Shown piece by piece: positions 15,762 through 49,843 of a stretch of 64,000 bases of DNA (the stretch's first letter is position 1; every line of letters starts with the position of its first letter). Below the pieces are notes generated by a model, which did no database searches, was not told the origin of the DNA, and saw only the letters and a list, made by a program, of their open reading frames with translations. This stretch comes from Torpedo marmorata. Its lineage: Eukaryota. The position numbers were made by a program, and so were the translations under genes. The stretch lies in contig OZ360222.1 in assembly GCA_977017645.1 (NCBI GenBank), forward strand, positions 134,974,001 through 135,038,000, read 5' to 3'.

Positions 15762-18700
15762 TGATGCGCCCATCAATAACTTCAAAAGACTAGAAGTTGT
15801 ACTTGAACTGAAAGGCTTTTATTAGCAATAGAATGGAGCCACGTCCATGCTGGTTATCTGTCCTGGACTGGGGGAGGAGCAGTGGCACAATCGCCTTTAT
15901 TCAGGGGGTCTGTGGGAGGAGCCACAGGAACAGTCAGCAGAGGGCATGTCCAGACATCTTACCCAGCCACAACCTATACACAGTGGTTTACCACATCCAC
16001 CCCTCCTTTTAAAAGAGTCCTGCGGGGTGAAGGGTATAACCATATTTACAGATAAGATACAAATAAGTATATTTACAGGTCGAGTCTATCAGGCGGTCGA
16101 GTCCGCCACTGTGATCGGCGCAGCACTTGTGGTGATCGGGCAGGCGTCAGTGCTAGTGCTGCCTCCTGCCTGATTTGAGGTACCAGCATGTCTGGCGTCG
16201 GCAAGACCTCGTGTGTGTATGCGTGTGTGTATGCATGTGTGTACAGGCTTTCACAAAGTGGAAAAGCCGGGTGATCCCGGGGTGGCAAAGGTCGCAGTGG
16301 AGGGCGTATAACCGGTCGATCTGCGCGCTGGCGCACGTCCCCCGGGATAGGGTATCAGAGGGCTCGTTGAGCTTCCCAGGCCGGTACGGGGGTCTCGTTT
16401 GGTGTCTGTGTCGGGTTTGGAGTATGTGGTGTCTCCTGTGTGTATATAGAGGTCGGTACGGGGCTGACAGTAACCATGGAGTGTTCGGGGGTGGGCCCCA
16501 GTGCTCCTGCGGGCACCAGGTCCCGGATGGAGACTGTGTCCTCCCGCCCATCAGGAAAAACCACGTAGGCGTACTGGGGGTTCGCATGTAGTAGGTGAAC
16601 CCGCTCGACCATCGGGGCGTATTTATTGCTCCTCACATGTTTCCGGAGCAGCACTGGCCGTGAGGACGTCAGTCATGCTGGTAGGGTAGTCCCGGTGGTC
16701 GACTTCCTGGGGAAGGAAAAGAGTCGCTCATGAGGGGTGGCATTGGTGGATGTGCATAGCAGGGAGCGGATGGAGTGGAGTGCCTCGGGAAGGACTTCCT
16801 GCCAACGGGAGACCGGTAGTCCCTTAGACCTGAGGGCTAAGAGTGTTGCCTTCCAGACCGTGGCGTTCTCCCTCTCCACTTGTCCATTCCCCCAGGTGTT
16901 ATAGCTCATGGTCCTGCTAGTCGCGATACCCCTGGCCAGCAAGTATTGGTGCAGCTTGTCGCTCATAAAAGAGGACCCTCAGTCACAATTAATATAGCAG
17001 GGGTATCCGAACAACGTGAAGATTTTACGCAGAGCTTTTATGACCGACGTGGTCGTGGTATTGGGGCAGGGGATAGCGAAAGGGAACCGCGAGTACTCGT
17101 CGATGACGTTAAGAAAGTACACATTGCGGTCGGTGGAGGGGAGGGGGCCCTTAAAGTCGACACTCAGTCGCTCAAAAGGGCGGGTAGCTTTGATCAGTTG
17201 TGCCTTTTTGGGTCGGTAGAAGTGCGGTTTGCACTCCGCGCAGACTTGGCAGTCCCCGGTCATCGTCCTGACCTCCTCAAGGGAGTACGGCAGGTTACGG
17301 GCTTTCACAAAGTGGAAAAGCCGGGTGGCAAAGGTCGCAGTGGAGGGCGTATAACCGGTCGATCTGTGCACTGGCGCACGTCCCCCGGGATAGGGTATCA
17401 GAGGGCTCGTTGAGCTTCCCGGGCTGGTACATGATGTCATAGTTGTAGGTGGAGAGTTCGATTCTTCACCTCAGAATTTTATCAATTTTGATTTTACCCT
17501 GCTGCTGATTGCTGAACATAAATGCGACTGAGCGCTGGTCAGTCAGCAGGGTAACCTTTTGCCAGCGAGATAATGCCTCCAGTGCCTGATAGCTTCCACT
17601 ATGGCCTGGGCCTCTTTCTCCACCGCTGAGTGCCGAATTTCTGGGCCTTGAAGGGAGAAGAATGCCACCGGTCTTCCCGCCTGGTTGAGGGTAGCAGCCA
17701 GAGTGAAGTTGGACGCGTCGCTCTCTACTTGGAAGGGAGTGGACTCGCCCACCGCGTGCATTGCTGCTTTGGCAATGTCCTCTTTGATGAGGCTGAAGGC
17801 CGCGCAGGCCTCAGCTGAGAGGGGAAATGTGGTGGACTTGACTAGGGGACGGACCTTGTTCGCGTAATTAGGGACCCATTGGGCGTAATATGAAAAAATG
17901 CCCAAGCACCCTTTGAGGGCTCTGAGGGTATGAGGAAGCGGTAGTTCCAGCAGGGGGCGCATACGGTCAGGGCCGGGGCCGATGACTCCGTTCTCCACGA
18001 CGCACCCCAGGATAGTGAGTCGAGTGGTTCCGAACATGCACTTATCCTTGTTGTAGGTGAGGTTGAAAGTTTTGGCCGCCTGGAGAAACTTCCGGAGATT
18101 GTTGTCATGATCCTGCCGGCCGTGACCACAGATGGTAATATTGTCCAGGTATGGGAACGTGGCCTTTAATTGGCACTGGTCCACCATCCTGTCCATCTCC
18201 CTCTGGAAGACAGTTACCCCATTTGTGACACCAAAGGGGACGCACAGGAAGTGATAGAGCCTGCCGTCCGCCTCGAATGTGGTGTAAGGGCGGTCCTCTC
18301 GGCGGATGGGGAGCTGATGGTAGGCGGATTTAAGGTCTATAGTCGAGTACAGCTTGTACTGCGCTATCTGGTTCACCATATCCACGATGCGTGGTAGAGG
18401 GTACGCATCGAGCTGCGTGAACCTATTGACGGTCTGGCTATGGTCTACAACCATCCCATGTTTCTCCCCGTTCTTAACGACAACCACCTGGGCCCTCCAG
18501 GGACTTGTGCTTGCCTCAATGATCCCTTCCCTGAGCAGCCGCTGCACCTCCGACTTAATGAAGGCCCTGTCCCCCGCGCTGTATCTCCTGCTTTTGGTTG
18601 CAACAGGTTTACAGTCAGGGTTCAGGTTGGCAAACAGCGTTATGGGATGGATCTTAAGGGTGGAGAGGCCGCATGCGGCTGTGCATGTGATGTGGTGAGA

Positions 18701-19817
18701 TACGTCTCGTATGCCTGAGGAATTGAGGGTTACCGACAGTGATTGGTGGGAGGGGCCCATCATACTCCATCGTCACACTTTGACAGTGGCTCTGGAAGTC
18801 GAGTCCCAGTAGCACAGGGGCACACAGTTGAGGCATGACCAGTAACGTAAAGTCCCAATATTCAGTGTCCTGCACCACTAGCGTTGCTACACACCCCACC
18901 GGATGTCTGTTGTGTGCGATCCGGAAGCCAATGACGACCCTCTGGCTTACCGGCTGTGTCATGAGTCCGCAGCCCTGCACCGTGTCCGGGTGGATGAAGC
19001 TCTCCGTGCTGCCTGTGTCCCTTCACCAGAATGTCCATCATAGACCTCACGAGCAGGTTGGGTGCACTTTGGTCGAGGGTAATGGAGGCCAAAGTTGAGT
19101 CACTGTCTCGATCCGATGTGATGGGGTGACTGGTGTTCCGTTCCCGCAACAGAGAGGCCAGGGATGGCAGCACTCGTGGGAGTGCACTTTGGTCAAGGGT
19201 AACGGAGGCCAAAGTTGAGTCGCTGTCTTGATCCGACGCGATGGAGTGCCTGGTGGTCAGTTCCCGTAACGGAAAAGCCTGGAATGGCGGCACTCGTGGG
19301 TCGTGGGCCGCGCAGTGTCAGCAAGATGGCGATGAACAAGATGGCCACTCCCATGTCTCGCACGTGTTGGCCGCAGGTGTAAGATGGCGGCGGCGGAAAT
19401 GACGCCAAACAAGATAGCCGCCCCCATGTCTCGCACGTGGTAGCAGCGGACGGGCAAGATGGCATCGGCAACAATGGCGACCCCCATGCCTCGCACACGG
19501 CACTGCTCGATCCCTCTCAGGGTTTAGATTTACAGACCTTGGCGAAGTGGCCTTTCTTCCCGCAGCTGGCACAGGTCATTTCTCGGGCCGGGCAGCGTTT
19601 CCGGGGGTGATTCTCGAGTCCGCAGAAGTAGCACTTCGCAGACTCGCGACTGGCGGCAGCTGTGGTTGATTCGCTGGCGTGGTGCAGGGTCTGCGGCATC
19701 CACGGAGCCGTCAGGAGATCATGCGCCTGGATAGCGTCAGAGTTCTGCAGAGCGGCTTCCAGCATATTGGTCAGCTCTATCGCCGAGCGTAAGGTGAGGT
19801 CGGCTTGTTCCAGAAGG
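15762..19817 (-). mobile_element. 5'-truncated Gypsy/Ty3 LTR retrotransposon (gag CCHC, PR, RT, RH, IN, PPT, 3' LTR)
   Basis: CYFCG..H...C and CASCGKKGHFAKVC knuckles; DTGS protease remnant ~19015; IDLKSAYHQ..PFG..YLDN RT; ESDAS RNase H; SVDFKGP..IDEYSRF..GNGQVEREN integrase; PPT AAAAGGAGGGGGTGGA before the LTR at 15995-15762 (TG..CA); frameshifted. Confidence 0.92.
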
Positions 19818-21112: not shown

Positions 21113-22030
21113 TAAAGGACCCCCATCATCCTGATCACAACCAGGTCACAACCTCTTCTCACTACTACCTTTGGGGCAGAAGGTACCGAAGCCTAAAAAC
21201 CAGGACCTCCAGGTTCAAGAATGTTTTTCCCCAATAGCTATCAGGCTCTTGTTACACTAATCATGGACTGCTCTGATACCAAAAAAGGACTGGCTGCACT
21301 ATTAAAAAGTCACTTTTCTTTCTTGCACAAGGATAATTGTGAATATTTATTATCTATCTTTTGTATTTATTATCTATTTTTATTCATATTATTATGCTAT
21401 TGTATATTTTAATTGTGCCTGTTTTGCTGCAGCAAGTAAGAATTTCAATACACATGTACATTGTACAACTTGTAAGAAAATAAACTCATTATCATTAATG
21501 TGGAAGCAATAGTTAACCATTTACATTCACCCCAGTGCAAAGAAGAGTATAGTGAAACACGAAAGTCTGCAAACACTGATTATAGTGAAAACACAGAAAT
21601 GCTGGAGGAACTCAGCAGGTCTCGCAGCGTCCATAGGAGGTAGAGATATAGAACCAACGTTTCAGACCTGAGCCCTACTTCAAGATAAAGAGTGTGCACA
21701 GGTTAAGCTTATAGATTGATCCCAATCAGAACAAGGATTATGTCTGTGTCAGGTCGATTGGCTAGGATCATAGCTTGATACCGTTGTATAGGAAGAGAAC
21801 ATTCTTCATTGGACAAGTCATGTTATTCTTGCTTAGACAGATAAATCTTAATGCACTTTTGCCTCCTGCCCACCAACATCCACCCTGCATTTATTTATTT
21901 ATATATATTGTTACAAAATCAAACCAGCAACGACAGAAGACGCAATGCAAAAGGAGCAAAATTGACATTTATATTTATTAACGACAATTAAACATATAAT
22001 TTCACAACAATCAACCCCACTATAAACACT

Positions 22031-22032
<2 letters not shown>

Positions 22033-22070
<38 letters not shown>
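22033..22070 (+). repeat. (TG)n microsatellite in the 3' LTR
   Basis: About 19 TG units versus about 6 at the equivalent 5' LTR position (26942-26954). Confidence 0.9.
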
Positions 22071-22074
<4 letters not shown>

Positions 22075-25000
22075 AAGCCCAGACCATTACAGTCTGTGCC
22101 CAAACCTCAAAAAACAAAATATAGAAAACCTTCCCCAAAACCCCCAGGTTAGTCATAAAAATAAGTCAGTCCCAAAAATACAGTCCACAAAAATCACTCT
22201 CAATGTTCAGGGTCCAAATTCAGTTCTGTGTGCTCGCACGAAGGACTTCTTAATGAACGTTGGAGAGAGAGACAATGACTGTTTAAGCTTACGAATGCTT
22301 GGCCTGCTTTTCTTCCGATGACTTTCCCTTTTGGTATGTGCACGAGGGACGCTGTTGCAAATCAGTATACCACTGATTGAGGTGCGTACTTGGATCTCAC
22401 GCCTGTTCTCCACGAAAGCTGCTTTATATCAGGATTTTGCTGATACAAGAGGCCATGTGCTATTTTCCCCCAGTCTTTCTTACTGGAATGCACAAGCCTG
22501 GATTTGGTGTTGTTGCTCCAGCCTTTTGGAAGTCCAAACTGAATACTTTTTGCAGAGGTTTGCACCTGCTTTTGCAAAAGTGCAACAAAGTATCTTTCCA
22601 CAGCCTGTCTCTCTATGTGTCTCTCTCTCCTGGGCAAGTTAACTCTTTCAGTACCTGGTCCCAGTGTGTACTCAAAATACTTCATTCTTCCTGCTGACCG
22701 TCCGCAGTCCAAATGGTCAGTCATGGTCCATAACACCTCCCACCCACAAAGAATATTTTGGTCTGCAAGAACAAAATTTTGGAAATTAATTGAGGTGTCA
22801 CAATATAAACAAAACCCACAATGTTCATCCACAAACACAAAAATATAAACTATTTTCATTTATAAAGTTTAGCATCTAGAAAGACAATCAGTGATTACAT
22901 TATCTTTCCCTATTACATGTGTTATTATTAAATCATATTCTTGCAAAATTAGACTCCAATTCAACAACCGTCGATTCTTATTTTTCATTTTACAAAGAAA
23001 AACTAATGGATTATGGTCAGTGTACACTATAAGTGGTTTTTGAACAGTACAGATATACACACCAAAGTGTTGTAGAGCCAACACAAGAGCTAACAACTCT
23101 TTTTCTATGGTGGAATAATTCCTTTGACGATCATTGAACTTCTTCGTTCTTCCTCGGTAACAACACAGCACCCACAGCTTCATCGCTGGCATCCACGGCT
23201 AAATAAAATGGCTTTTCTAAATCAGGTGACTTAAGTACAGGTCGGTGGCATAAAATGGCTTTCAATTTGACAAATGCTTCCTGACAATTTTCTAAGCAAA
23301 TTTGTGAGAGGGAGCGCAAGATCTGCAAAGTTTTTACAGAACTTGCGGTAGTAGCCAATCATTCCCAGGAACCCCCTCAGAATTTTCTTACCAATTGGAA
23401 CAGGGAACTCGGAGATAGTCACAACCTTGGCCTCTACTGGCGCCAACTGCCCCTGTCCTACTATATATCCCAGAGAATTAACAGTCCCAGGACCCTCTCT
23501 GAAACTGGTTTTATCTGTCTCCTCCTGACCCCGGTCGATAACCAGCACCTCTGGTAAATGTTCAGTCCCTTTGTGCGGCACCTGTTCAAAATATGGCTTA
23601 ATCATATTCACATGACAGACGTGTGTCTCGTCTGCGATTAGGTGTTTCTATGACAGAGGTGACCTCATTAATTTTTGACTTAACTCTATAGGGTCCTGAA
23701 AATCTAGCCCTAAGAGGATTTGAATGTGTGGGAAACAGAACTAATACGTTCTCACCAGGTTTAAAAGTTCTCATCTTGGCCTTTCGATCATACCAAACCT
23801 TCATTCTCTGTTGAGTGGCCTTTAAAGTCTCCTTTGCCATCTCACAAGCTTTATGCAACCGATCCTTAAATTTGGAAACATAATCCAACAGATTTAAATG
23901 CACATCACTATTAATCCAATGTTCTTTTAATAACCTTAAAGGACTTCTCACCTCATGTCCGAAAACTAACTCGAATGGACAAAAACCAAGTGATTCTTGG
24001 ACAGACTCCCTTGCTGCAAATAACAACAAATGAACACCCTCATCCCAATCCTTTTCCTTCTCACAACAATAAGTTCTAATCATGTTTTTCAAAGTCGAAT
24101 GGAACCACTCCAAGGCCCCTTGACTTTCTGGATGGTACGCAGAGGATACAATCTGTTTAACTCCCAGTCTATCAACCACTTGTTGGAATACACCTGATAT
24201 GAAATTACTACCCTGATCTGATTGAATTTCCCTTGGAAAACCTACCAAGGTGAAAAACTTTACCATAGCCTTTAAAATTACCTTTGCTTTAATGTTTCTC
24301 AGAGGAATGGCCTCTGGAAATCTGGTGGCTGCACACATAATTGTTCACAAATACTCATTTCCCGCTTTGGTTTTGGGCAATGGGCCAACACAGCCCACAA
24401 TCACTCTCGAGAAACGCTCACTGAAAGCAGGGATAGGTTGCAGGGGTGCAACCGGGGGACCCTGATTAAGTTTACCCACCACCTGACAAGTGTGACAGGC
24501 CCAGCAAAAGCTTACAACCTCCCTTCTCAAACTGGGCCAATAATATTGTTTCATTATCTTCCGTATAGTTTTCTTCACCCCAAGGTGGCCACCTAAGGGT
24601 GTGCTATGAGCCAAAGTTATTATTTCGTCCCTATATACTTTAGGGATCACAACCTGCTGCACTACTGCCCATTCTTCACTGGCAGGAACATCACATGGTC
24701 TCCACTTTCTCATCAACACCCCATCTTTTTCATAATAACCCACTGGCACCTTCTTAATCTCCTCTTCAGATAGAACCTTATCCCTCACCTCAGCAAGATC
24801 AGGATCGTCCTTTTGCCTTGCTATTAGCTGCTGTCGGGATAGTGACAAATCAGTGCCTTTCAGTGTCTTATCAGTGTATGGTGTAACACAGGAGATTGCT
24901 CAACCTTTTCCAGGTGTTTTTGATTATCAATGACTTTTTCTTTCACCAATTTATTTTCCACTGCCTTCTCTACAGTGGCATTTTTCTTAGAAATGGCCCT

Positions 25001-27421
25001 GGTTATGGCACATGCCGGATAAATATAAGAGTCCTTCTCTGACTTATAAATGACTGGCTTAGTGGTCATTCACACTGCAAGAACTACTTTACCCTCAGCC
25101 AAGTCATTGCCTAGCAACAGTGAGACTCCTTCTACGGGCAACTCTGATCTCACTCCTATTATAACAGGTCCTTCCACCAAGTCTGAGTCCAATACTATTT
25201 TGTGCAAAGGAATGGACTCAACATTACCCCCAATTCCTTTAATTAAATTCATTTCACCGGTGTCAGTGGCTTCACAAAATTCCAAGACACTATCTAACAC
25301 AAGTGACTGAGCAGCTACAGTATCTCGCAAGATTTTCACTGGAACTTGCTTTGCTCCTGCCTTAACTGAAACAAAACCATCAGTCACAAAAGGTTTAAAT
25401 ACATCCCTAACTTTGTCAGTAAATTTGTCTCCTTCCTGGGTGTTATGCCTCTTCTCACTCTGAATACAAGCATTAGGTGTTGCATCCTTTTCTCTCTTCT
25501 TTTTCAACACTGGACAGCTTGCTATCATATGACCAGCCTTCCTACAGTAGTGGCAAATGGGACCCGAAGGGTTTTCCCTTTTCCACTTTCCTTCATCCCT
25601 TTCCTTAACAGCACTTCCAAATTTACTTTCCACTTGCTTGGGATTATCCACAGTGACCTTTTGGAAAATTCTGCCTGACGTCCACTTAGGCTTGTGAGTT
25701 AAAGCATATTTATCTGCTAACTTAGCTGAATTTTGCCAAGTTTTCACCTCCTTTTCATCCTCAGGAACACACCTTTTTATCTCCTCAATTATTATCAATT
25801 CTCTCAATTGATTGTAATCATTGTTTACCGCCTTAGATGTGCACCACCGGTCAAAACACACAACCTTTTCATAGGCAAACTCTGTGTAAGATTGGATTGC
25901 TGATCTTTTTAAATTTCTAAACTTCTGTCTATAAGCCTCTGGAACTAACTCATAAACCTGGAGTATAGCCTTCTCTACCGTTTCATAATCAGCAGCTTGC
26001 TCCATGGTAAGAGTAGAAAAAGCTTGCTGAGCTTTTCCTTTTATTACACTTTGTAACATAAGAGACCATTGGTCTTGTGGCCTCTTTAATTTCACAGCCA
26101 CCTTCTCAAAATGCTGAAAGTACTTATCTATTTCTGCCTCCTCAAATGGAGGAACCAACCTAACTTCTCTACTGGCCAAAAACCTCTCAACAGGATGACG
26201 AATTTGATCTTGGTGCTCTTCTTGTCTCCTCTCATTTTCCAACTTAATCTTTTCCAGCTCATATTTACTAATGTTCTCCTCTCTCTCTAAATCTAATCTC
26301 TTTTGTTCCCTGGCTACCTCCAAGTCTAATCATTTTTGTTCTTTGGCTGCCTCCAAGTGTAATCTCTTTTGTTCCAATTCCCTGTCTAATTTCTTTTGTT
26401 CCCTGGCTGCCTCCAATTCCAATTTCTTTAGTTCCAATTGTATGTTTTCAGAAGGTTTACCCTTGGGAAACTCCTCTAACACGCTCTCCTCAAACTTTTT
26501 CCATTTTATATAGTATTTGGCAATTTTTCTCCCAGTCCGCCTTTTTCATTGATGGTTTTACAGAAGCAATGCCAAACTCTGTTGCTATAGCCACTAACTG
26601 TTCCTTTTTAGCCTTTTTTAAAGAATCAGGTTCTGGTGATTCCAAAAAATTTTCTACATCCATTGTTGCTGGTTTTTGTTACACACACACTAGCTTTTAA
26701 TTAGCTTTACTAAAGGAATATCTTAAACTCGACTGGGATTCCTTCAATTAGCAAACTGGAGCTTGATTCAATCCTGGACGAGCCCCCAATTTGTTACAAA
26801 CTTAAACCAGCAACAACAGAAGACGCAATGCAAAAGGGGCAAAATTGAAATTTATATTTATTAACGACAATTAAACATATAATTTCACAACAATCAACCC
26901 CACTATAAACGTCTATAAACACTATTCTTATCTAAAGAGATTGTGTGTGTGTGTATAAAGCCCAGACCATTACAGTCTATGCCCAACCCTCAAGAAAAAA
27001 AATAGAAAACCTTCCCCAAAACCCCCAGGTTAGTCATAAAAATAAGTCAGTCCCAAAAATACAGTCCACAAAAATCACTCTCAATGTTCAGGGTTCAAAG
27101 TCAGCTGCGCTGGCACGAAGGACTTCTTAATGAAGGTTGGAGAGAGAGACAATGACTGTTTAAGCTTACGAATGCTTGGCCTGCTTTTCTTCCGATGACT
27201 TTCCCTTTTGGTAGGAGCACGACGGTTGAGTTCCAAATCAGTATACCACTGATTGAGGCGTGTACTTGGATCTCACAGTCTGACTCGCTGATCTCACGCC
27301 TGTTCTCCATGAAAGTTGCTTTACATCAGGATTTTGCTGATACAAGAGGCCATGTGCTATTTTCCCCCCAGTCTTTCATACTGGAATGCATAAGCCTCGT
27401 TTTGGTGTTGTTGCTCTCACC

Positions 27422-28848: not shown

Positions 28849-29417
28849 TCCCAAAAGATGCCGTATATACGCATGCAATAGTTGAATTTTGTGGACCAAT
28901 TATTAGGGTAAATTTTCAGGGGTCACCTATTACATGCATACTACTCTTGACCTCGGTAAGTACCTGTGTCATTCAAGGCATCGGGAACTCGGATGGGCGA
29001 GCGGCAGGAGCCGAGGCGAGAGTCCTCGGTCGGAGCGTCGGGAGCTCAAATGGGTGGGCAGCCGGGGCCAAAAATAGTTTTGGAGGGGGGGGGTTGACCT
29101 TTAAATGTTATCGACTATTACACTACACAATTACAACGATTCCTTGCCTCGCATCAAGTAGCCCAGTTGCCAAACACTCCTAACAGCCTCACTCGCCAGC
29201 TCCTCCTGCCTTTCAGCTCTCCCTAGAACATGTATTTCACATACACCATACATTAACTCCTCCCCAGAACCATCATTTAACCTCTCCACCACTGCACACT
29301 TTTACCAAGTAAACTGTTCTCCACTGGCCAATTGCATTTATCCCATTAAACACTCTATAACCTCAATTTATTCTATTAATAACCTTCTCTATTTATTCTA
29401 TTAATAAAATCAGATTA

Positions 29418-30415
29418 TTGACACCTGGCACGGCACCTGGCACGACACCTGGCACGGCACCTGGCACGGCACCTGGCACGGCACCTGGCACGGCACCTGG
29501 CACGGCACCAGGCACGGCACCAGGCACGACACCTGGCACGACACCAGGCACGACACCAGGCACGACACCAGGCACGACACCAGGCACGGCACCAGGCACG
29601 GCACCTGGCACGGCACCTGGCACGGCACCTGGCACGGCACCTGGCACGGCACCTGGCAAGGCACCTGGCAAGGCACCAGGCACGGCACCTGGCACGGCAC
29701 CTGGCACGGCACCTGGCAAGGCACCAGGCACGACACCTGGCACGACACCAGGCACGACACCTGGCACGGCACCTGGCACGGCACCTGGCACGGCACCAGG
29801 CACGGCACCTGGCAAGGCACCAGGCACGGCACCTGGCACGGCACCAGGCACGACACCAGGCACGACACCAGGCACGACACCAGGCACGACACCAGGCACG
29901 ACACCAGGCACGGCACCTGGCACGACACCAGGCACGACACTAACCGTGACACTAGCTGTGACACCAGGCACGACACCTGGCACGACACCAGGCACGGCAC
30001 CTGGCACGGCACCTGGCACGGCACCTGGCACGGCACCTGGCACGACACCTGGCACGACACCTGGCACGACACCTGGCAAGGCACCTGGCACGGCACCTGG
30101 CACGGCACCAGGCACGGCACCTGGCACGACACCAGGCACGACACCTGGCACGGCACCAGGCACGGCACCTGGCACGGCACCAGGCACGACACCAGGCACG
30201 ACACCTGGCACGGCACCTGGCACGGCACCTGGCACGGCACCTGGCACGGCACCTGGCACGGCACCTGGCACGGCACCTGGCACGGCACCTGGCACGGCAC
30301 CTGGCACGGCACCAACCATGACACCAGGCACGACACCAGGCACGACACCAGGCACGACACCAACCATGACACCAACCATGACACTAGCTGTGACACTAGC
30401 TGTGACACCAGGCAT
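29418..30415. repeat. 12-bp minisatellite (RCACCWGGCACG), about 83 units, in APMAP intron 1
   Basis: Uninterrupted 12-bp register with variant units (ACACTAGCTGTG, ACACCAACCATG). Confidence 0.97.
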
Positions 30416-30679
30416 ACATTGTTGCTAAAAACTCACCAATCCCCCTGGCCAACAGTTGCACCATTCTTCTAACCCTAATAACCCCTCGTGTATTCGTTAT
30501 TTAATTGCATTAACCCCTCCTCTCGCACCGAGCTCACCAAATCTCCCCTCTAGCATCCACCACTGCATTTACCCGACGATCTAAATGTAATCAGACCAAA
30601 ATCCAACTGATCGTCAGTCAGGGTATCTTGAATAATCTTCCCGTAATCTCAATCATCAACCCAACTCTAAAATAATCGC

Positions 30680-30920
30680 CACGCAGCCACTACCTGACGT
30701 GCTTGGTCTCCGCATCCCGCGACTCGTCCGAGATAACCCGCGGTTGCTGAAGCCGACGGTGCCGCAAACCTTCACTCTCCTTCATCGTCCACCCGCACGC
30801 ATGCGCCAAAAGCACGAGCCCGCGACCAACGGACGAAATCCGAAACCGACCTGACTCGCGCCCGGCGAAATACGTCAGGGGGCGCGCATGCGCATGTTAA
30901 GCCATGTCTCCGGACAGGCG
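30680..30920 (-). promoter_or_regulatory. CpG-island promoter and 5' UTR of APMAP with NRF1-like sites
   Basis: CpG-dense; GCGCATGCGC at 30884-30893, ACGCATGCGC at 30797-30806, CRE-like TGACGTA (minus) at 30871-30877; no obvious TATA box. Confidence 0.7.
30694..30785 (-). CDS. APMAP: APMAP (adipocyte plasma membrane-associated protein) coding exon 1
   Basis: ATG at 30785 reads MKESEGLRHRRLQQPRVISDESRDAETKHV(S), resembling the vertebrate APMAP N-terminus (MSEADGLRQRR..PQV); ends AG|gtagtg; 92 bp, phase 2; lies in a CpG island. Confidence 0.92.
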
Positions 30921-31119
30921 GAATTAACTGTCCAGTTTATCGGTTCCTGGTATTTCGAGCAGTTCAATTGAATGTTTATCTGTAACTGACCAATTGTTGG
31001 GAGTTACCCTGTGATTCTGTTATTTACCCTGTTATTCATTGATCTATTGGCAGGAGGTTACTTGTCAGTTTATATTACATACCTATTGATCAGAATTTAA
31101 CCATTATTTTACCATAGAA

Positions 31120-31354
31120 CATTAGATTTCAGGTTTATTGTCAGTAAATACATGACATCACAATCACAAGCAACCCTGAGGTTCTTTTTCCTGCGGGCCA
31201 GGCAGAATTACCACATATTGACAGTGCAAAAAAAACCTGAACACAATGTACACGTGTAAATAAATTAAGAAATGTAAACAAACTGACTGTGCAATACAGA
31301 GAGGAAAAAACAATCAATAAAGTGCAAAAGTAAGTCCTTAAATGAGTCCCTGAT
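31120..31354 (-). mobile_element. Rex1/Babar LINE 3' end, host of the ERV and hAT insertions (continues 36672-36834 and 40013-40300)
   Basis: GAGTCCCTGAT|...|CTGATTGAGTTTG reconstitutes the sequence seen at window positions 15-35. Confidence 0.85.
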
Positions 31355-31866
31355 TGTCGGAAATGAAGACTCTCGACAATCGGTTCTCTTTAAAATCAGC
31401 ACAGCACGGTGAAGCTTTATTTATCAAGTCTGCAGAGTTGGACCCAGCCGGCTATCGCCAGGCTGTGTGCTTTTTCACAGCTGCAATAGTCATTTATACA
31501 TTCTTAGTTCATCACACCCCCTTCATTATTTCATCACGCCCCCCTTCGTTATGATTGGATAAGCTTAGATAAGCTTTTTTTTGTACTGCTCTGCTTAACA
31601 ATCTATTATCCTGACATACACTTCTAAAAGGTATTTCCCTCCCTGGCCCCTTTCATGCCTTATCTAGTGGTTAATCTCCTCCCTGGCCCCCTTTCATGCC
31701 TTTTACACAAAACAGATGTTGATAACATGTTGTTTCAAACAGACTAAAGATTCTTTGAATTCTTTAACCATTTGTCTCATTTCACTTTTCCAGTCTTGCC
31801 TATTTTTAATAGATATTTAATCTCATGTTTAACATTGCAACATTCAACAATTCTTACTATCTCACA
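31355..31866 (-). promoter_or_regulatory. ERV 3' LTR
   Basis: Minus-strand order CCAAT (~31558), TATAAA (~31498), AATAAA (~31421); TG...CA ends. Confidence 0.85.
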
Positions 31867-31907
31867 ATCCCCCATTTCTTTCTTTGCAATGTTAAAGGAA
31901 TATCCTA

Positions 31908-32130
31908 TTAATACATGGGATGTACTTCCCAGGGTGGAGTGTGCAGTTCAGCGTTTCTTTGTAGCATAAGTCGCACAGGGTCTGCTGGCCCTCCCGGCCC
32001 CATAGTTTGCTTAACAAGATTAGTTATAAGGGAACGAATACATGGCAGAACACAGGGTATGAAGAGAAGCAGGAGAAGAATAATACCAATAAAAGCCAGG
32101 AGTGAGACACAAATTCTCCAGGGGTTATTC
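31908..32130 (-). pseudogene. ERV env transmembrane anchor and cytoplasmic tail remnant
   Basis: Hydrophobic ICVSLLAFIGIILLLLLFIPCVLPCIRSLI just upstream of PPT/3' LTR; SU and ectodomain missing. Confidence 0.75.
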
Positions 32131-32317
32131 TCACTTCCGACCCCACTCTTTGGATTACCGCAGGCTAACACAACTTGCAGTCACGCAAGAAGAGAGGGGA
32201 AGGGGTGCCTGGTTCTCCCTTTCCTACAGCTCCCTTCCTATGGATAACCGCTAGATCTCTCATCCCTACCAGATTACAGATTACCATAAACATCCAAACA
32301 TTCATTTTTACAATCTT

Positions 32318-33880
32318 TTAACTCTTTTTAAATCGCAGTTTCAATGGATTGTCCGTTGCAGAACAGGTCCAATCAATGTTATCTTCGGTCTGAGGGGGAA
32401 CTGGTCCCTTTAAACGTGAGGCGTGGGTCCAACCCTTTTCTCGTGTTCGTTCTGCCTCTTCAGTCATCAGAAGGACCTGAAAAGGTCCCTCCCAAGCTGG
32501 TCGGAGGCACTCTGTTCGCCACGACTTTATCAATACCCACTCTCCTGGTTGAATGGAGTACAGGGCGAAATCTAAAGGCGGAGTCTGGGCCAAAAGACCC
32601 CGAGTACGTAGATCTGAAAGAGAACGTGAAAGTGCCTGTAAATAGTCCCTAACCAAGACATCCCCATCCTGTATTACTGGGCACTCCGGGGGACGTCCCC
32701 AAAAAGGCACCCCAAACAACATCTCGAATGGTGACACCCCATATCTTTGCGCAGCGCGGTGCGAATACGCATTAGGGCCAAGGGTAAACATTTTGTCCAA
32801 GGCATTTTTGTTTCCTCTATCAGCTTTGTCAATTGAGCCTTCAGGGTTGCATTCATTCGTTCTACTTTTCCCGAACTTTGGGGATGCCAGGGGGTATGTA
32901 ATTTCCAGGTGATCTGTAAAGTCTGGCATACCATTTCATGCACCCGTGAAGCAAAATGAGTGCCCCGATCTGAATCTATCGAGTCCATCACCCCATAACG
33001 TGGTATCAAGTGTTCTAACAGGATCTTACCTACCGTAGAAGCTCGTTCATTGGCCGTCGGGTAAGCCTCTACCCACCGAGTGAAATGATCCACGATAACG
33101 AGTAAATATTTCCACCTCTGCACGCGAGGCAATTCAGTAAAGTCTATCTGAATTCGCTGAAAGGCCTAATTGCAAGAGGGTTTCCTCCTTTCAGCGGAGT
33201 CCGCATTACTTTCTTGTTTATCCGGGCACATATAGCACAGGCCCGTACCTCCTTTTGGGCCAGGGTATACAATCCTTTGCATCCATACTGGCGAAGAAAT
33301 GTATCACATAATGCCTGCGTTCCCCAATGTCCTTGTTGATGTAAATGCCGTACCAACTTACGAGCAGTCTCTTTATTTAATAATGTCTTCCCATCAGGCA
33401 ATTTTCACTCACCACTCTGCAATTTTACCGCTCCTTCACCTCCTCCTGCTCACTTCCCGAGAGAAAGAGGTCATCCACATACTGCAACAGTTGTATCTGA
33501 TCAAGTCGCTCATACTCCTCCAACACCTGTTCCAAAATTTGTCCGAACAAGTTAGGTGATTCTGTGAACCCCTGTGGTAACACCGTCCACCGATATTGCC
33601 GCTTTCGACCCGTATATGGGTTTTCCCATTCAAAGGCAAACATGTCTCGAGAATTCTGGTCCAACGGGCACGACCAGAAGGCATCTTTTAAATCTATTAC
33701 ACTAAACCATCCATGGTCTGGGGGAATCTGGCTCATAATAGTATAGAGATTTGGAACAACCGGGTGTCGGGCAAGGACTACTGCATTCAGACGACGCAAG
33801 TCCTGCACCAACCGGTATGTGCCATCCGGCTTCCTTACGGTTAAAACCGGGGTGTTGTATGAGGACATACATTCTTCCAG
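32318..33880 (-). pseudogene. ERV pol remnants (partial RT fused to frameshifted integrase)
   Basis: RT motifs 33430-33880; integrase H..H/C..C, D,D-E and GPF in three frames; no protease or RNase H seen. Confidence 0.88.
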
Positions 33881-34749
33881 CCTCCTCTTACACCTGTTCC
33901 CTCCGTAAATGGGCAAGGGCCATAATGTCCGGTGCAGTTCTCCCTTACGCACCCATCCTCTTGGCGGCCCCCTCTTTGTGCCTCATCCTTTCTGGATTTC
34001 TCGTTAACCTGTCGGATCGTCTGTACCATAATTCTAGCCGCACGCTTCTGACCTTCCTCTTCCCTCTGCACATACACTTTTTGTGCCTTCTTCAGGAGTT
34101 CACTTAGGGGCATTTCATTCCAGTTCTCTTCCTTTTCCAGCTTCCTCCTAATATCTTGCCACGATTTTGACACAAATTCAATCCGGGTGAATTGTTCACC
34201 CATCGGAGCATTAGGATCAACCCCGGCATACTGCTGGACGTTCTTCCTTATTCTCTCTAGAAAATCGGTCGGGGATTCATCCTTCCCTTGGTAATTCCCA
34301 AATGCCTTGGCAAAATTATGCCCCTTCGGCACCGCTTCCCTTATTCCTTTAATGACTCTCTCTCTATGGAGTCTCATCCTTCTTAATCCTGCATCCGTTC
34401 TCTTATCCCAATTTGGGTCGACTAGGGGATATTTCTGATCGGGATGTTCATTGTTCCCAGGTTCCTCCCGCTCCCAAACTGCCAGGGCAGCCTGTCGGAT
34501 CATTTGCCTCTCTTGAGGCGAGCAGAGGGTCACCATTATGGCCTGTAATTCATCCCAGGTATAAACATTTGGACCCAGAAACTGGTCTAACTGCTCGGCC
34601 AATCTCAAAGGATCTTCAAGCAAACTTTTCATCTCCTTCTTAAACTCCCGCACTTCAGTGCTAGTGAGGGGAACATTAACAAATCCTGTCCCCCCTTCCG
34701 GTCCCCCCATTGGGACCTCCCTCAGGGGATCAATTTCATTCTCTCCCAT
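33841..34749 (-). pseudogene. ERV gag capsid frame
   Basis: PLREVPMGG...FVNVPLTSTEVREFKKEM...QGKDESPTDFLERIRK; runs out of frame into the RT remnant. Confidence 0.85.
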
Positions 34750-34750
34750 T

Positions 34751-35312
34751 TTCTCATCAATAGACCATCTTTCAAATAGTAACCAACTGGCACTTTCTTA
34801 ATGTTCTCATCAGATAGTACTTTTTCTCTAACTTCAGCAAGATCAATTTCTTTATTTTGTTTCTCTATTAACTTTGCTCTGGATAAAGACAAATCCTCTT
34901 TCAGCTGCTGTTCACTGTTACTACTTTCAAGCTTAATACGAGAACTCTGTTGTAACAAAGAAACATTCAAATTGACCAATGTTTTTTCCTGTGTCTCTGA
35001 TTCTGTCTGTGCCTGTGGTTTAATTTTGCATGCTTGTGAGTCTTTTAAATCAGTCTGTCCAGTATTTTCTTCACTGGCAAAGTTTTTAGACAATGCTTTT
35101 AAATCAGTTTGCTCAGCCTTTTCTTTGCTGGCTACAATTCCCCATTCAGCTTCAAACTTAATTGGGTACTTTATTGCAGGGACAACCTTACCTCCTGACA
35201 CAAAAGGTTTACATTCCTTCCTAATTTTACCAACAATCCCCTGTTTTCCATCTCCTTGAATACAAGCATCTCACACTGTTTTCTGTTCTCTATTTCTCTT
35301 CAAGAAAAAACA
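34751..35312 (-). other. Gmr1-like gag/pol fragment captured inside ERV gag
   Basis: DACIQ..KPFV|SGGKVV...LSLSRAKLIEKQ..DLAEVREKVLS..IKKVPVGYYLKDGLLMRKW matches the element at ~24700-25500; flanked by ATTCTCTCCCATT repeats. Confidence 0.88.
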
Positions 35313-36138
35313 ATTCTCTCCCATTACCCCCCTTCCCTCCTCCCGTCCATAGTGCCGCAGTCCCTCTACTGGCTCCCCCTCTTGTTCCGAACTCCCTGGG
35401 GATGCCGTTGGAGCCTGAGGCACATAGGGAGGGGGTAAATTATCTAACAGGTTCCACTTCTTTTCTCCCATCATCCCAAGCTTAAAACTTTTTGCTGTTG
35501 AGCCTACCCCCGGGACCCAACAGAGGGCATAGGCCGATTCCTCCTGATTCACTTTAGGTCTCTTATTCACAAATACATTCAGAGCCTGCCATCTGACCCG
35601 TACTTCGGCCACCAGACCGAATCCCCCCGTAATGAAGGAACCTTGGGAGAAGGATCCTCCCCTGGTTTCCTCATTTGTTTATTCCCCATTTTCTCAGGGT
35701 TGGTGTAGAAACCCCATCACCCCTCTGAACTTGGCTCGACCTCCCCCTTTTCCCGCCGCCCCGGCCAAACCTCAGGGTTCAATTCCCCGGTATCCCGTCT
35801 GGCCGGGTTTCGGCTATTGGGAGTCGTCCTTTCAGGATTCCGGTGTCCGGGCTTCTAGACCCCCCTTTCTTTCAATCTCGTATCTATTTTCTCTCCAGGG
35901 GTTTTACCGGTTATTACTTAACCTTCCCCTTTTCCCGGACCTCTAGCACCGTTCCATAAGTCGTCACTTACCGGTGTCTCCTAGAGCATCCCTCCCCGCT
36001 TCCAACCGTGCTGTTCAGTCCGGATATCACTCGCTCAAGCCGCGTTTGGCGACGAACAAGGATCTCGGGGACCACTGAACTCAGCGGGGTGCACCGTCTC
36101 CGATCCCTTCTTCGTCTCCCCCCACGGCCGGAGTGTGA

Positions 36139-36156
36139 ATCCCGGACGAGCCCCCA
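36139..36156 (-). other. Primer-binding site complementary to tRNA-Pro
   Basis: TGGGGGCTCGTCCGGGAT, the canonical MLV-type Pro PBS. Confidence 0.93.
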
Positions 36157-36159
36157 CGT

Positions 36160-36671
36160 TGTCGGAAATGAAGACTCTCGACAATCGGTTCTCTTTAAAA
36201 TCAGCACAGCACGGTGAAGCTTTATTTATCAAGTCTGCAGAGTTGGACCCAGCCGGCTATCGCCAGGCTGTGTGCTTTTTCACAGCTGCAATAGTCATTT
36301 ATACATTCTTAGTTCATCACACCCCCTTCATTATTTCATCACGCCCCCCTTCGTTATGATTGGATAAGCTTAGATAAGCTTTTTTTTGTACTGCTCTGCT
36401 TAACAATCTATTATCCTGACATACACTTCTAAAAGGTATTTCCCTCCCTGGCCCCTTTCATGCCTTATCTAGTGGTTAATCTCCTCCCTGGCCCCCTTTC
36501 ATGCCTTTTACACAAAACAGATGTTGATAACATGTTGTTTCAAACAGACTAAAGATTCTTTGAATTCTTTAACCATTTGTCTCATTTCACTTTTCCAGTC
36601 TTGCCTATTTTTAATAGATATTTAATCTCATGTTTAACATTGCAACATTCAACAATTCTTACTATCTCACA
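36160..36671 (-). promoter_or_regulatory. ERV 5' LTR
   Basis: Copy of 31355-31866; followed on the minus strand, after 3 nt, by the PBS. Confidence 0.9.
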
Positions 36672-36906
36672 CTGATTGAGTTTGTTGTTGACGAGTCTGA
36701 TGGTGGAGGGGTGCAGCTGTTCCTGAACCTGGTGGTGCGAGTCCTGTGGCACCTATACCTCTTTCCTGATGGCAAGAACAGAGCGTGTGCTGGGTGATGT
36801 AGATCCTTAATGATTGCTGCTGCTCTCCGACGGCCAGTGCCGGATTAACGTAGTAGCAAAAGTAGCATATGCTACAGGCCCCACATTTTCAAGGGCTCCG
36901 CGCTAA

Positions 36907-39315: not shown

Positions 39316-39379
39316 ACTTGCTCTATTACTTTATGTACTATGAATTATGAACGACTGACTGGGTGTTTAACTTAAACAT

Positions 39380-39592
39380 TTTCGTTTTCATCTTTGTGCA
39401 GTGGCTATGAGATACCACACTCCCATAGTCTGTGTTAATAACCCTGGTTAAAGGTGATAATTGACTAAAATCGCTAACCTTAAACAGTTTAAGGTTAGCG
39501 ATTTTAGCCAATTATCACCTTTAATCGGGGTTATTAACACAGACTATGGGAGTGTGGTATCTCGTAGCCGCTGCACCAAGATGAAAATGGAA
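39380..39592. repeat. ~213-bp near-perfect palindrome centred on 39486
   Basis: ...AAAATCGCTAACCTTAAAC-A-GTTTAAGGTTAGCGATTTT...; arms pair out to about 105 bp with scattered mismatches. Confidence 0.92.
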
Positions 39593-40314
39593 ACGGAAAC
39601 GCACCTCAGCTGAACAAAAAATAATCCTCAGCCCCTCAGTCAGCTGGCTGGTTTCGTTTACATGTGGGAAATATGAAAGCTTAAAGGAGTGGTAGCGAAA
39701 ATTATCATATCCTTTCATCAAGGATGTAATCACTGAATATATAGTGATCTGAGAAAGCGAGCAACATTTTGTTAAGAATAATTAAGACTATTTCAAACTT
39801 ACCAAAACGGACATGCAAGGTTAGCGTTAGAAACTCTCTCGAGGGGGGGGGTGGTGGGCGCAGTCACACTTCCCCCTCATTGCTCATGCGCCCGCCAACA
39901 CTTCATGCGCTGTTGTCACACTTCCCCCTCACCGCTCATGCGCCAACCGGCACAATTTAGGGCCCCTTTATAATATATGCTACAGGCCCTGAAATACCTT
40001 AATCCGGCCCTTCCGACGGCAGCGTTCCCTGTAGATGATCTCGATAGTGGGGAGGGTTTTGCCTGTAATGTCCTGGGCTGTGTCCACTACCTTTTGCAGG
40101 GCTTTACGCTCAGGGGTATTGGTGTCCCCATACCAGACTGTGATGCAGCCGATCAGCACACTTTCCACCACACATCTGTCAAAATTTGCCAAGGTTTCCG
40201 ATATCATACCAAACCTCCACAAACTCCTGAGGAAGTAGAGGCACTGATGTGCTTTCTTCATGATGCCATTAGTGTGTTGGGTCCAGGAAATATCCTCCGA
40301 GCTAGGTTCTCCCA

Positions 40315-43386: not shown

Positions 43387-46300
43387 TTACAAATCCAGAT
43401 GACGAACAGTTTATTCAAGATACTTTTTTACATTTATCTGAGGCTAAGGAAAATATTTTAATTGGTGGAGATTTTAATTGCTGTCTAAATGCGAACATGG
43501 ACAAAACTACTAAAACATTTGTTAGACCTAAAATAGTCAAAAGAATTATTAATTTAATGGATGATTTAAATCTGGTAGATATCTGGAGGAAATTAAATCC
43601 TAGAGAAAAAGATTATTCATTTTATTCTTTTAGACATAACTCATTTTCAAGGATTGATTTGTTTTTGATATCTTCACAAATTCAGGATAGAGTAACTCAA
43701 ATATCTTATAAAGCAAGAATAATTTCAGATCATTCACCTTTATTGATGACATGTATGATTCCAGAGAAAGAAAAAATTGTATATAATTGGAGATTAGATT
43801 CTTCTTTATTAAATAGAAAAGATTTTTGTGAATATATAAGAAAAGAAATTCAGGAATTTTTAAGAATTAATAATAATTCAGTTAATGATAAATTTATAAT
43901 TTGGGAATCTTTAAAAGCATATCTAAGAGGTTTGATAATAAGTTTTTCGGCAAAAATTAGAAAAGATTATTTGAAAGAAGAAGAAAAATTGGAAAGGGAG
44001 ATTGAATTTATGGAGAAAGATTTTCAAAGAAATAAAACAATTTTTAAGAGACAACGTTTAATTAGGAAAAAATTGCATTATAATATATTACAAACTCGAA
44101 AAATAGAAAAATTAATTGGTAGAACAAAACAAAGATATTATGAATTGGGAGAAAGAGCACATAAAGTTCTAGCATGGCAATTAAAAAAAGAACAAGTTTC
44201 TAAAACTATAAATGCTATAAAAAAAAGTACTGGTGAAATAACTTATAAACCTCAGGAAATAAATGATTCTTTCAGAGAATATTATCAGAATTTATATACT
44301 TCGCAGATTGATCAGGATGTTACAAAAATTGATAATTTTTTATCTAAAATTACATTGCCTAAATTAAATAATTTTAATAGAGATATGTTAGATTTACCTA
44401 TTACAATGAGAGAAGTAGTTGAAGCTTTATCGTCATTGAAAAGTGGTAAATCTCCTGATGATGATGGATTTCCGATAGAGTTTTATAAGAAGTTTAAAGA
44501 CTTACTGATACCTATATATATGGAAGTATTGACTCAAATTAAGGAAACTCATTTATTACCGAAAACTTTTTTAAATGCTGTTATTACAGTTATACCAAAG
44601 AAAGATAGAGATGTATTAAAAACTGAGTCATACAGACCTATATCACTGTTGAATGTAGATTATAAATTAATGGCAAAAATTTTGACAAACAGACTAGCTA
44701 AGTTTTTACCATTTTTAATACATTCAGATCAAGCAGGATTTATTAAAAATAGATATTCGAAGGATAATATAGCAAGATTAATAAGTTTAATTAACTTGCA
44801 AAAAAGCAAACAGGATTTGCCGCTGGTGATAACATTAGATGCAGAAAAAGCATTTGATAGATTAGAATGGAATTTTTTATTTAAGGTTTTAGAGAAATAT
44901 GGATTTGGGAATACTTTTATAAATTGGATTAAAACTATATATAAAGAACCTACAGCTAGAGTAATTACAAATGGTCAGATATCATCTAAATTCCCTTTGT
45001 TGAGGTCAACAAGACAAGGATGCCCTTTATCACCTGCTTTATTTGTATTGGCAATAGAACCGTTGGCTGAAGTGATTAGGAAAGATATTAATATAAATGG
45101 GATTAAAGTAGGTGCAGAAGAACATAAAATTAGTTTATTTGCAGATGATGTATTAATATATATGACGAAATCTATTGGATCGCTTCAACAATTAGCTAAG
45201 ATATTGAGGGAGTATGGTGAGATATCTGGTTACAAAATAAATTCAGATAAGAGTGAAATAATGGCTTTATCTCAAGGAGATTATACTAAATGTAAAGAAG
45301 TTACAGGATTTAAATGGGCTAAAGAAGGAATTAAATATCTGGGAGTTAAAGTAGATACAAAATTGGAAAATTTATATAAATTAAATTATGTACCTTTATT
45401 TCAGAAAATAAAGAAAGATTTGGAGAATTGGAAAGATTTACCTATTACCTTAATGGGAAGAGTGAATTGTATTAAAATGAATATTTTTCCAAGAGTTCAA
45501 TATCTTTTTCAATCTATTCCTTTTGGAATTCCTCAAAAATTTTTTAAAGATTTAAAAACTATTATTAGAAAATTTCTATGGAAAGGAAAATTAGCAAGAG
45601 TAAGTATGGATAAATTAACTTGGGAATACGAGATGGGTGGATTACAACTCCCCAATTTTCAATATTATTATAAGGCAGCTCAATTAAAGTTTATTAATGA
45701 ATTTTTTGATTTAACTAAATCTACTGCTTGGATTAATATAGAATTGAATAATATAGGGGAAAGATATAAAGAAGATATTATTTATAAATGGAATTCTAAA
45801 TTATTATTAGTTAAAAAGAAAAAATCACCGATTATTAAACATTTATTGGAAATCTGGACTCAGTTAGACAATGAGATAGGACGAAAAGGGTCATTATCTC
45901 TGAATATGCCATTGTATCAGAATTTATTGTTACCTTTTTCTATTGATAATCAATTTTTAAAACTATGGTTTCAAAAAGGAATTAAGAAGATTAAAGATTG
46001 TTTTGAGGCTGGAAGATTTGTTACATTTTCTAGGTTGAAAGAAAAATTTGGAATAATGGATAATACAATTTTGGCTTACTATCAGGTTAGAGGATTTTTA
46101 GTTGAGAAATTGGGGAATCAATTAACAACTCCAAGACAGGATGGATTAGAATTATTAATTACTAATGGAAATGTTAACAAATTTATATCACAAATGTATA
46201 AATTACTTCAGAGAAAAATGCCTAAGGTAGGATTACATAAATCAAGATTAAGTTGGGAATCAGATTTAAATATTAATATAGATGAAAAACATTGGAAAGA

Positions 46301-47128
46301 ATTATGTAAATTGAGTATGACTAAAATTATTAATGTTAGATATAGATTAGTACAATATAATTTTTTTCATCAATTATATTTAACACCTAAAAAATTAAAG
46401 AAATTTAACCCGGCACTATCAGATATGTGTTTTAGATGTAAGGATGAAATAGGTTCTTTTGTACACTGTACATGGTCATGTTTAAAAATTCAAAATTTTT
46501 GGTTTAAAGTTAAAGATTTTTTGGATAGAATTTTTAATATTACGGTTCCAATGGACCCTATGTTATTTTTATTTGGAGATATTAAAAAATTTAGTATTAG
46601 AAATAGATTGAATATGTATCAAATAGAATTTTTACGAATTGTCTTAGCGGTTTCAAAAAAATGTATCGCTATTACTTGGAAATCAGATTTAGATTTGAAT
46701 TTAGATAGATTACATGCAGAATTACGTTCTTGTATACCATTGGAAAAATTACATATAATTTACGGAATAATTATCATTTCTTTTTGAAAATTTGGAGCCC
46801 ATATATGAGAATTATGGGTATGAATTAATTCTCTAGAAGTTGGTACCGCCGGCAAAAATAACCTCCAATATATAAATAGAATTAGTTTGTAATTTGTTTT
46901 CTCCTCACTTTAACTTTTTAATTCTTTATTATTCAATTCTTTCTTTTTTTTTCTTTATAACTAACATTCTTTTTTTTTTCTCTCTTTTTTTTTTAGAATA
47001 GTGTTGGGGGGGTTGGGGAGGGGAGGGTGGGAGGGGGGGAGGTAATATATCACATGTATTTTGAATAATATACTATTTTTGATTCATGTATTTTGTGATT
47101 TTAAAATTTAAATAAAATTTTAAAAAAA
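43387..47128 (+). mobile_element. 5'-truncated L1-clade LINE with long open ORF2 (43497-46787)
   Basis: GGDFN, SRID, SDH endonuclease; YRPISLLNVDYK, QGCPLSP, FADD RT; C-terminal CFRC..H..C; G-rich 3' UTR, AATAAA and poly(A); TSD AACATGCAATAACAAA at 43371-43386 and 47129-47144; frameshift near C-terminus. Confidence 0.95.
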
Positions 47129-47149
47129 AACATGCAATAACAAAAGCAA

Positions 47150-49355: not shown

Positions 49356-49843
49356 ACTCCTTAATTGCACTTTTGAAGGCCTTAGTGATATTGATATATG
49401 GCTAAGTAATTTGTTTCAAGTTCTGATGAAAATCATCAACATGAAATGTTTATTTCATGCATCTCTCCAGAGGTGGTGCCTCAGTTGCTTTTTACAATCT
49501 TTTATATTTATATTACAAGATTTCCAGTGCTTGTTCCCTGTGCCACATGGGGGTAGAAATGTGCCACATGAGAGTAGAAATAAGAGATGTAACAAATAAG
49601 GGAAGAGGACAAATTAACGCATGGATAAAATGCTTGTATAGGAGGAATGGCTTCAGATACTTGGATCATCTGGATCACTTTTGAAGTACTGTATGTTGAA
49701 CCTAGTCAAGAATGATGGGTTGCGAGGTCACGTGATGCAGAGGAGTTAAGTAGACCTGGATTCTTGGGCTCTCCATACATCATCGATTTAAAACGTGATA
49801 AATACTGAATTTTCAGATTTAAAATAGATAAAAAGCAAGGAGA

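Follow-up and report, generated by a model that had tools for sequence, protein, structure and literature searches.

A chimeric, probably already defective class I endogenous retrovirus as a relatively young insertion in Torpedo marmorata

How does a provirus come to have two identical long terminal repeats (LTRs) around a genome that can no longer make its own enzymes? The question is raised by an endogenous retrovirus (ERV) at positions 31355-36671 of a 64,000-nucleotide stretch of Torpedo marmorata DNA (assembly GCA_977017645.1, contig OZ360222.1, positions 134,974,001 to 135,038,000 of the forward strand), the whole of which is referred to here as the window. The element lies on the minus strand and reads from 36671 to 31355. 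An initial annotation, made from the letters of the window, took it for a defective satellite mobilised in trans. What the locus holds is real: a chimeric class I ERV that was probably defective before it inserted, and whose insertion is relatively young. We favour the explanation, with a probability of roughly 0.65, that RNA was transcribed from an aged genomic donor whose cis signals were intact. A competent relative would then have packaged and integrated this RNA, and perhaps also have supplied the LTR and leader.

Integration marks and the damaged interior

The two LTRs (31355-31866 and 36160-36671) have TG...CA ends and differ at 0 of 512 positions. CTGAT flanks both of them as a 5-bp target duplication, and the host sequence is the 3' end of a long interspersed element (LINE). 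A paralogous LINE copy at window positions 1-60 has CTGAT once at the matching position, so the duplication is real and of the integrase type. Two other origins were considered and ruled out: a LINE-mediated processed copy, by the two complete LTRs and the 5-bp duplication, and recombination between two different proviruses, by the CTGAT that matches on both sides and is single in the paralogous LINE. The CCAAT, TATAAA and AATAAA motifs of the LTR stand in the expected order, the primer-binding site (PBS) is of what we take to be the tRNA-Pro type, and the cis signals (LTR ends, PBS, polypurine tract and leader) are intact. The identical LTRs, the duplicated CTGAT and the intact PBS and polypurine tract had all been reported in the initial annotation, and our alignment agrees with it on each. 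The features of the element are, in its own reading direction:

36672..36676, no strand assigned: target-site duplication CTGAT (as read on the plus strand), inside the LINE 3' end
36160..36671, minus strand: 5' LTR, 512 bp, TG...CA, with CCAAT, TATAAA and AATAAA at LTR positions 309, 369 and 446
36139..36156, minus strand: primer-binding site, 18 nt
35690..36138, minus strand: leader, likely packaging region, with a splice-donor-like site at 35972 and a GACG-loop hairpin at 35956-35971
35324..35689, minus strand: gag MA/p12 remnant with a PPPY motif (tblastn with Narcine P0079, 68-71% identity)
34746..35323, minus strand: Gypsy retrotransposon fragment, 578 bp, in the same sense as the ERV (75% nucleotide identity over 150 bp and 74% amino acid identity to the Gypsy element of the window)
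33950..34745, minus strand: capsid, uninterrupted, severed from the start of gag (Pfam Gag_p30, E 3e-30)
33431..33880, minus strand: reverse transcriptase (RT) core remnant, 150 codons, with YVDD, both ends deleted (RVT_1, E 7e-22; residues 159-308 of P0156; MLV RT, E 1e-38)
32321..33430, minus strand: integrase, full span, with a premature stop at ~33402 and frame changes at ~33160 and ~32737 (Pfam and mapping of relatives)
31908..32305, minus strand: env remnant, a short 5' piece plus the TM anchor and cytoplasmic tail, with a junction near 32150-32120 (residues 140-202 of P0140, 50% identity)
31869..31885, minus strand: polypurine tract, 2 nt ahead of the 3' LTR
31355..31866, minus strand: 3' LTR, same sequence as the 5' LTR
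31350..31354, no strand assigned: target-site duplication CTGAT (as read on the plus strand), followed by the LINE 3' tail

The leader is likely the packaging region. Its 3' part is structured (z -3.2), with a fold that exceeds 198 of 200 shuffles in stability, and its GACG-loop hairpin, with a 6-bp stem, is the sole one among the 10 GACG words of the element to have a stem longer than 3 bp. GACG loops are described as taking part in gammaretroviral packaging (PMC516450).

Damage to the interior was mapped by placing intact relatives on the element by tblastn. About 37 codons of MA are gone near 35640, and a short loss with a frame change lies near 35590. Between the capsid, at 33950, and position 33880 there is no nucleocapsid CCHC zinc knuckle, protease or RT N-terminus. 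At ~33431 another 461 codons are gone (RT thumb and connection, and RNase H); half of RT is deleted in the element. Pfam matches in the interior are Gag_p30, RVT_1, Integrase_H2C2 and rve, with MLVIN_C slightly under its cut-off, and a splice-acceptor-like site stands at 32614, upstream of the env remnant. Mapped in this way, the element is unable to encode a working RT or integrase of its own.

Contigs of four public runs (X1 to X4, of six listed) were also compared with positions 30500-36159, a span that contains one LTR only. None of the listed runs contains half of the sequence words of the stretch searched, and no RNA run was among them, which says nothing about expression. In X3 and X4 the contigs cover just two parts, the Gypsy piece and the tail of the LINE, and those of X2 cover no unique flank; such gaps are not evidence of absence. 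The partial deletion of MA and the absence of protease, RNase H and nearly all of env, as claimed at the outset, agree with the mapping of relatives, and the loss of the nucleocapsid knuckle is to be added to that list. A frameshift had been noted in integrase; frame changes are present there and were undercounted, since there are two of them (~33160 and ~32737) plus the stop at ~33402. Among the junctions given earlier as ~33885, ~33430 and ~32300-32130, the deletions near 33950-33880 and at 33431 stand. The env junction lies near 32150-32120 and not at ~32300, because a run contig (record 11) is collinear with the element over 32186-32892.

A Gypsy fragment in gag and the kinship of the element

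The span 34746-35323, which went unmentioned in the initial annotation, is not retroviral, and it makes up 578 of the 4293 nt of the interior. It resembles the Gypsy element with integrase before RT at 21908-27416 of the window (75% nucleotide identity over 150 bp; 74% amino acid identity to 24702-24851). The insert begins at the end of the Gypsy gag zinc knuckle and stops where the integrase region starts; a by-eye comparison with the window Gypsy finds it without a protease. The window Gypsy itself lies on the minus strand and has its integrase upstream of an RT remnant, most of RT being missing; its LTR pair has 37 mismatches in 593 aligned sites. We take its gene order to be Gmr1-like.

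A 13-nt direct repeat (35312-35324 and 34738-34750) flanks the insert, and homologies of 11 nt and 5 nt can be read from its junctions. Such ends look as a double template switch would leave them; insertion through DNA-break repair from a Gypsy template is possible. Nested transposition of a Gypsy element is ruled out, the insert being an internal fragment without LTR ends. Contigs that match the insert with few differences leave into other sequence: both X2 and X4 have such contigs at 35323, and X4 has them at 34746 as well. X3 and X4 contain the Gypsy piece and no other part of the ERV. Contigs of these last two runs (records 24 and 32) read through the point at which the Gypsy protease is missing, which suggests that the donor belonged to a Gypsy family that is abundant and itself deleted. 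The Gypsy family of the captured piece is very abundant (runs X1 to X4) and appears to be without its protease region.

The PBSs of the ERV and of the window Gypsy are identical at 17 of 18 nt. A bolder account would build on this resemblance: a gamma-like retrovirus still replicating in the germ line of a ray lineage would be accompanied by a swarm of deleted genomes. At least one of them would have recombined with a co-packaged RNA of a non-autonomous Gypsy that shares its tRNA primer, which would be an exchange across Retroviridae and Metaviridae; amplification would have followed, and the locus would be polymorphic today. We consider this account conceivable, though doubtful.

By sequence comparison the element is a class I (gamma-like) ERV. 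Among solved structures the best match to its RT is MLV RT (E 1e-38), the next non-MLV entries being at 1e-17 or weaker. The capsid is of the p30 type (PF02093, 105.6 bits against a cut-off of 27.4), with matches to capsids in the PDB as well, and the integrase C-terminus scores 27.3 bits with PF18697, slightly under the cut-off of 29.2. The gamma-type TM region of env (CX6CC and the immunosuppressive domain) is deleted here, and the tail that was kept matches P0140, which itself has CX6CC.

The nearest relatives are in gene models of rays and sharks. The nearest named capsids are those of Narcine (76%) and Hemitrygon (68%); the nearest RTs are those of Hemitrygon (77%) and of Hypanus and Rhinoraja (75%), and the next are those of snake and bird ERVs, which reach 68%. 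In an RT tree of 36 rows, comprising 34 RT-bearing proteins hand-picked to span hosts (named exogenous retroviruses were not among the rows) and with a Gypsy-type pol remnant of the window (16153-18772) as outgroup, the element joins Hypanus and Hemitrygon at 87/86, unstarred, and falls in no starred group. Taken by itself, this kinship makes a batoid host likely. That remnant, on the minus strand, has a 409-aa RT/RNase H frame. Class I ERVs in the gene models of Narcine bancroftii, Hemitrygon akajei, Hypanus sabinus, Rhinoraja longicauda and Chiloscyllium are like the element in their capsid (64-76% identical) and RT (75-77%). Unlike it, they have no Gypsy insert in the protein sequences compared, and their distance is too great for any of them to have been the helper. 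The element's class I lineage is also found in birds and in a rattlesnake (P0003, P0161, P0162 and others), with RT up to 68% and capsid about 50% identical, nearer than MLV; these relatives are consistent with past transfer between vertebrate classes.

The order of damage and integration

If the interior had been damaged after integration, the LTRs would be expected to have aged with it. In comparison with the X2 contigs listed, LTR and leader together have 2 differences in 728 sites, against 37 in 1728 for the coding interior (Fisher p 0.0003). By part, the LTR has 1 difference in 238 (0.4%) and the leader 1 difference plus 1 gap in 490; the capsid has 19 in 705, integrase and env have 12 plus a gap in 708, segment 33256-33445 has 5 in 190, and segment 31867-31991 has 1 in 125. 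About 20 lesions were counted in the 4293-nt interior and none in the LTRs, which has a probability of 0.014 for 1024 nt of LTR if lesions fall uniformly (0.04 for 15 events and 0.15 for 9). Had the interior acquired half of its 2.1% divergence at this locus, the LTRs would be identical with a probability of 1.7e-5. Damage before integration is the favoured order, and the claim that the element was damaged first and mobilised in trans is supported on both counts, the lesions and the Fisher contrast.

A different route to the same picture is that an intact virus made the faulty genome in one or a few rounds of reverse transcription, which then integrated once, was never a donor and founded no satellite lineage. 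It would explain the identical LTRs too, and it fits the short homologies at both ends of the insert and the finding that no junction is shared among the contigs listed for the four runs. It demands, however, four large deletions, one insertion, at least three frame changes and a divergence of ~2% in very few rounds, and it leaves the interior diverged and the LTR and leader not (p 0.0003). The private substitutions of the element also speak against it. Within the 40 of 221 rows listed, X1 and X2 concur against the window at 8 substitutions. None is in the LTR. Three are CpG-type, which is what a stay in the genome as methylated DNA would lead one to expect. We regard this route as unlikely.

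Alternatively, an old insertion may have decayed in place and had its LTRs equalised later, by gene conversion or artificially by assembly and polishing. The interior does have an aged look, a high-copy family favours mis-polishing, and the LTR identity rests on the assembly rather than on raw reads of the source animal. Conversion, which the initial annotation had named among the threats to its reading, would overwrite one aged LTR with the other, and each would then show the same divergence from the family as the interior; the observed distances from the X2 contigs (0.4% for the LTR, 2.1% for the interior) are not that pattern. Moreover, the 490-nt leader has no conversion partner yet is equally close. 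Polishing to the family majority should have removed the capsid differences as well, and the assembly does not flatten LTR pairs generally, because the window Gypsy retains its 37 mismatches. Later equalisation of the LTRs is therefore quite unlikely in our view.

The absolute age of the insertion depends on the clock. For the epaulette shark a mutation rate of 7e-10 per site per generation is reported (PMC10587355). At this borrowed rate, 0 differences in 512 place the insertion at no more than about 4.2 million generations (95%), a bound that becomes 2.1-20.9 million generations over the confidence interval of the rate, and the mean wait to a first LTR difference is 1.4 million generations. 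Because the elasmobranch clock is slow, LTR identity alone is a weak sign of recency, and the wording 'very recently' of the initial annotation goes beyond what the LTRs can show. An X1 contig covers the flank at 30700-31052, ending before the insertion junction, and differs from the window at 9 of 353 positions; its organism is for this reason probably a related species. If this 2.5%-diverged contig is orthologous, the split from that organism probably came before the insertion. The insertion is young relative to the damage of its interior, and its absolute age may reach millions of generations.

The same slow clock could be held to account for everything: an intact provirus would have been damaged in place over a few million generations, its LTRs remaining identical by chance under low elasmobranch rates. 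The wait of 1.4 million generations to a first LTR difference (rate from PMC10587355) is in its favour. It cannot yield at least 8 private substitutions and about 20 interior lesions beside a clean 1024 nt of LTR (P 0.014-0.15 by count and 1.7e-5 by divergence), and we think it very unlikely.

Read depth hints at a high-copy ERV family that is rich in deleted forms. Five listed ERV contigs of X1 have depths of 438-2037, or 53-247 times that of the flank contig (8.25), and RT bins are thinner than capsid bins (535-569 against 5212-6555 in X1; 0.8-2.4 against 6.5 in X2). One X1 joint, at depth 861, omits 178 nt of integrase. An X2 contig (record 9, 31355-31543) matches the LTR at 188 of 189 positions and continues into 239 nt unlike the flank of this locus; it is probably another insertion site or another leader.

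Several observations weigh against the favoured explanation. The contrast of the LTR alone with the interior reaches p 0.08, and the X2 contigs need not derive from one single copy; a mixture of copies or subfamilies would weaken the contrast between LTR and interior. Some changes in the Gypsy piece may predate its capture, which would lower the lesion count. Depth in the run assemblies should not be read as copy number. Joints with fewer than 30 letters on one side are unreliable, and the shorter side of the 178-nt joint is 22 letters long. None of the element's own junctions is bridged by the contigs listed for X1 to X4, and one X2 contig lacks the frame change at ~32737, so a satellite family of this exact structure, as proposed at first, is no more than a possibility. 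No protein of helper grade emerged from three protein searches, whose best matches are 76%, 72% and 77% identical. A recently active helper, as had been deduced from the identical LTRs, does not follow from that identity. Viral contigs gave no capsid relative and no LTR motif match, and metagenome contigs gave no LTR motif match; an RT scan of the latter returned 12 loci, the best 62% identical.

Weighing all of this, we infer the following order of events for mobilisation of an aged donor in trans. A class I (gamma-like) ray ERV genome would have decayed while resident elsewhere in the genome, losing most of pol and env stepwise, and would have taken up 578 nt of Gypsy by a double template switch at short homologies. 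The donor would have kept its LTR promoter, PBS, packaging leader and polypurine tract, and because these were kept its RNA could be packaged, reverse-transcribed and integrated in trans. Gag, RT and integrase of a competent member of the same family would have packaged, copied and integrated that RNA, possibly with recombination with a younger genome that supplied the LTR and leader. The outcome would be the locus seen here, its identical LTRs newly made and 5 bp of the LINE duplicated around it.

The remainder of the window holds other repeats. Tandem arrays of 12-bp and 27-bp units, with several frames open, lie at 29312-30430 and 8947-9486, the first about 0.9 kb from the ERV. An L1-like pair in inverted orientation (43390-47130, plus strand, and 59688-63764, minus strand) is 77% alike over 3.7 kb, with an open frame of 1134 aa in one of the two; positions 49832-54702 hold a third L1-like copy, in which ORF1 is present. 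A cluster of pieces in both orientations at 3465-7546, with a GIY-YIG-like frame at 4234-5130, presumably belongs to a Penelope-like family. An inverted repeat at 39379-39593 has 107-nt arms that are 93% complementary and 1 nt apart.

Comparison with known systems

ERVs whose env is of the gamma type are on record from six cartilaginous fishes, three of them with more than 500 copies (bioRxiv 10.1101/2021.11.23.469661). Wang and Han (2023, PMC10435555) surveyed 2004 vertebrate genomes, 13 of them cartilaginous, and list 37 orders with invading ERVs, among them no shark or ray order. In the 12 supplementary files of that paper that were searched, the queried chondrichthyan names occur in the genome list only; files 13 and 14, which lay outside the search, may bear on this. 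The invading ERVs of those authors are defined by a gag, pro, pol and env that are all intact, together with polymorphism. Identical LTRs are common to them and the element, and the intact genes are absent from it. ERVs are described as taking up foreign RNA in the case of host mRNAs (PMC4299795), and trans-complemented insertions are described for cattle (PMC11831830). Within the titles and abstract openings searched, with subscription journals outside the scope, we found nothing on this family, on a recently active ray ERV or on an ERV that had captured part of a Gypsy element.

If rays do carry a young, high-copy class I family, this would indicate where an invading virus could be sought, and the Gypsy piece, if amplified, would document that a retrovirus and an LTR retrotransposon have exchanged sequence in a vertebrate. 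Unless a helper, shared junctions or polymorphism come to light, the locus is one more defective provirus with identical LTRs, and the slow elasmobranch clock is a caution for similar findings elsewhere.

Trans-mobilised defective ERVs are well known in mammals. VL30 is reportedly packaged by MLV. ETn, which is non-coding, is described as moved by MusD (PMC1331978), and the likeness of VL30 and of ETn/MusD to the element lies in a non-coding RNA with retroviral cis signals that is moved by the proteins of another element. A VL30/ETn-like strategy, as proposed in the initial annotation, is not the closest analogy, because the interior consists mostly of the virus's own decayed genes: MA, capsid, RT, integrase and env are recognisable, and 578 of 4293 nt are foreign. 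Unlike ETn, the element retains a recognisable capsid, RT core and integrase, which makes it a degraded genome and not a dedicated satellite.

Two other systems fit better. The mouse intracisternal A-particle (IAP) subtype I-delta-1 is described as a deleted genome complemented in trans (PMC1331978), as we propose for the element. It belongs to class II and is demonstrably active and multi-copy, whereas the element is of class I, has several deletions and is known from a single copy, with a helper that we infer. The recKoRV genomes are described as recombinants of KoRV and PhER (PMC6112702). They share with the element young LTRs and leader around older foreign retroelement sequence, microhomologies at the breakpoints and target-site duplications. 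In recKoRV the other ERV replaces the entire centre; here a 578-bp piece of a non-retroviral Gypsy element, likewise joined at microhomologies, sits within gag, and most of the interior belongs to the element itself. By analogy with these systems, the locus is most likely a defective genome of the IAP-delta1/recKoRV kind, mobilised in trans within a high-copy ray ERV family.

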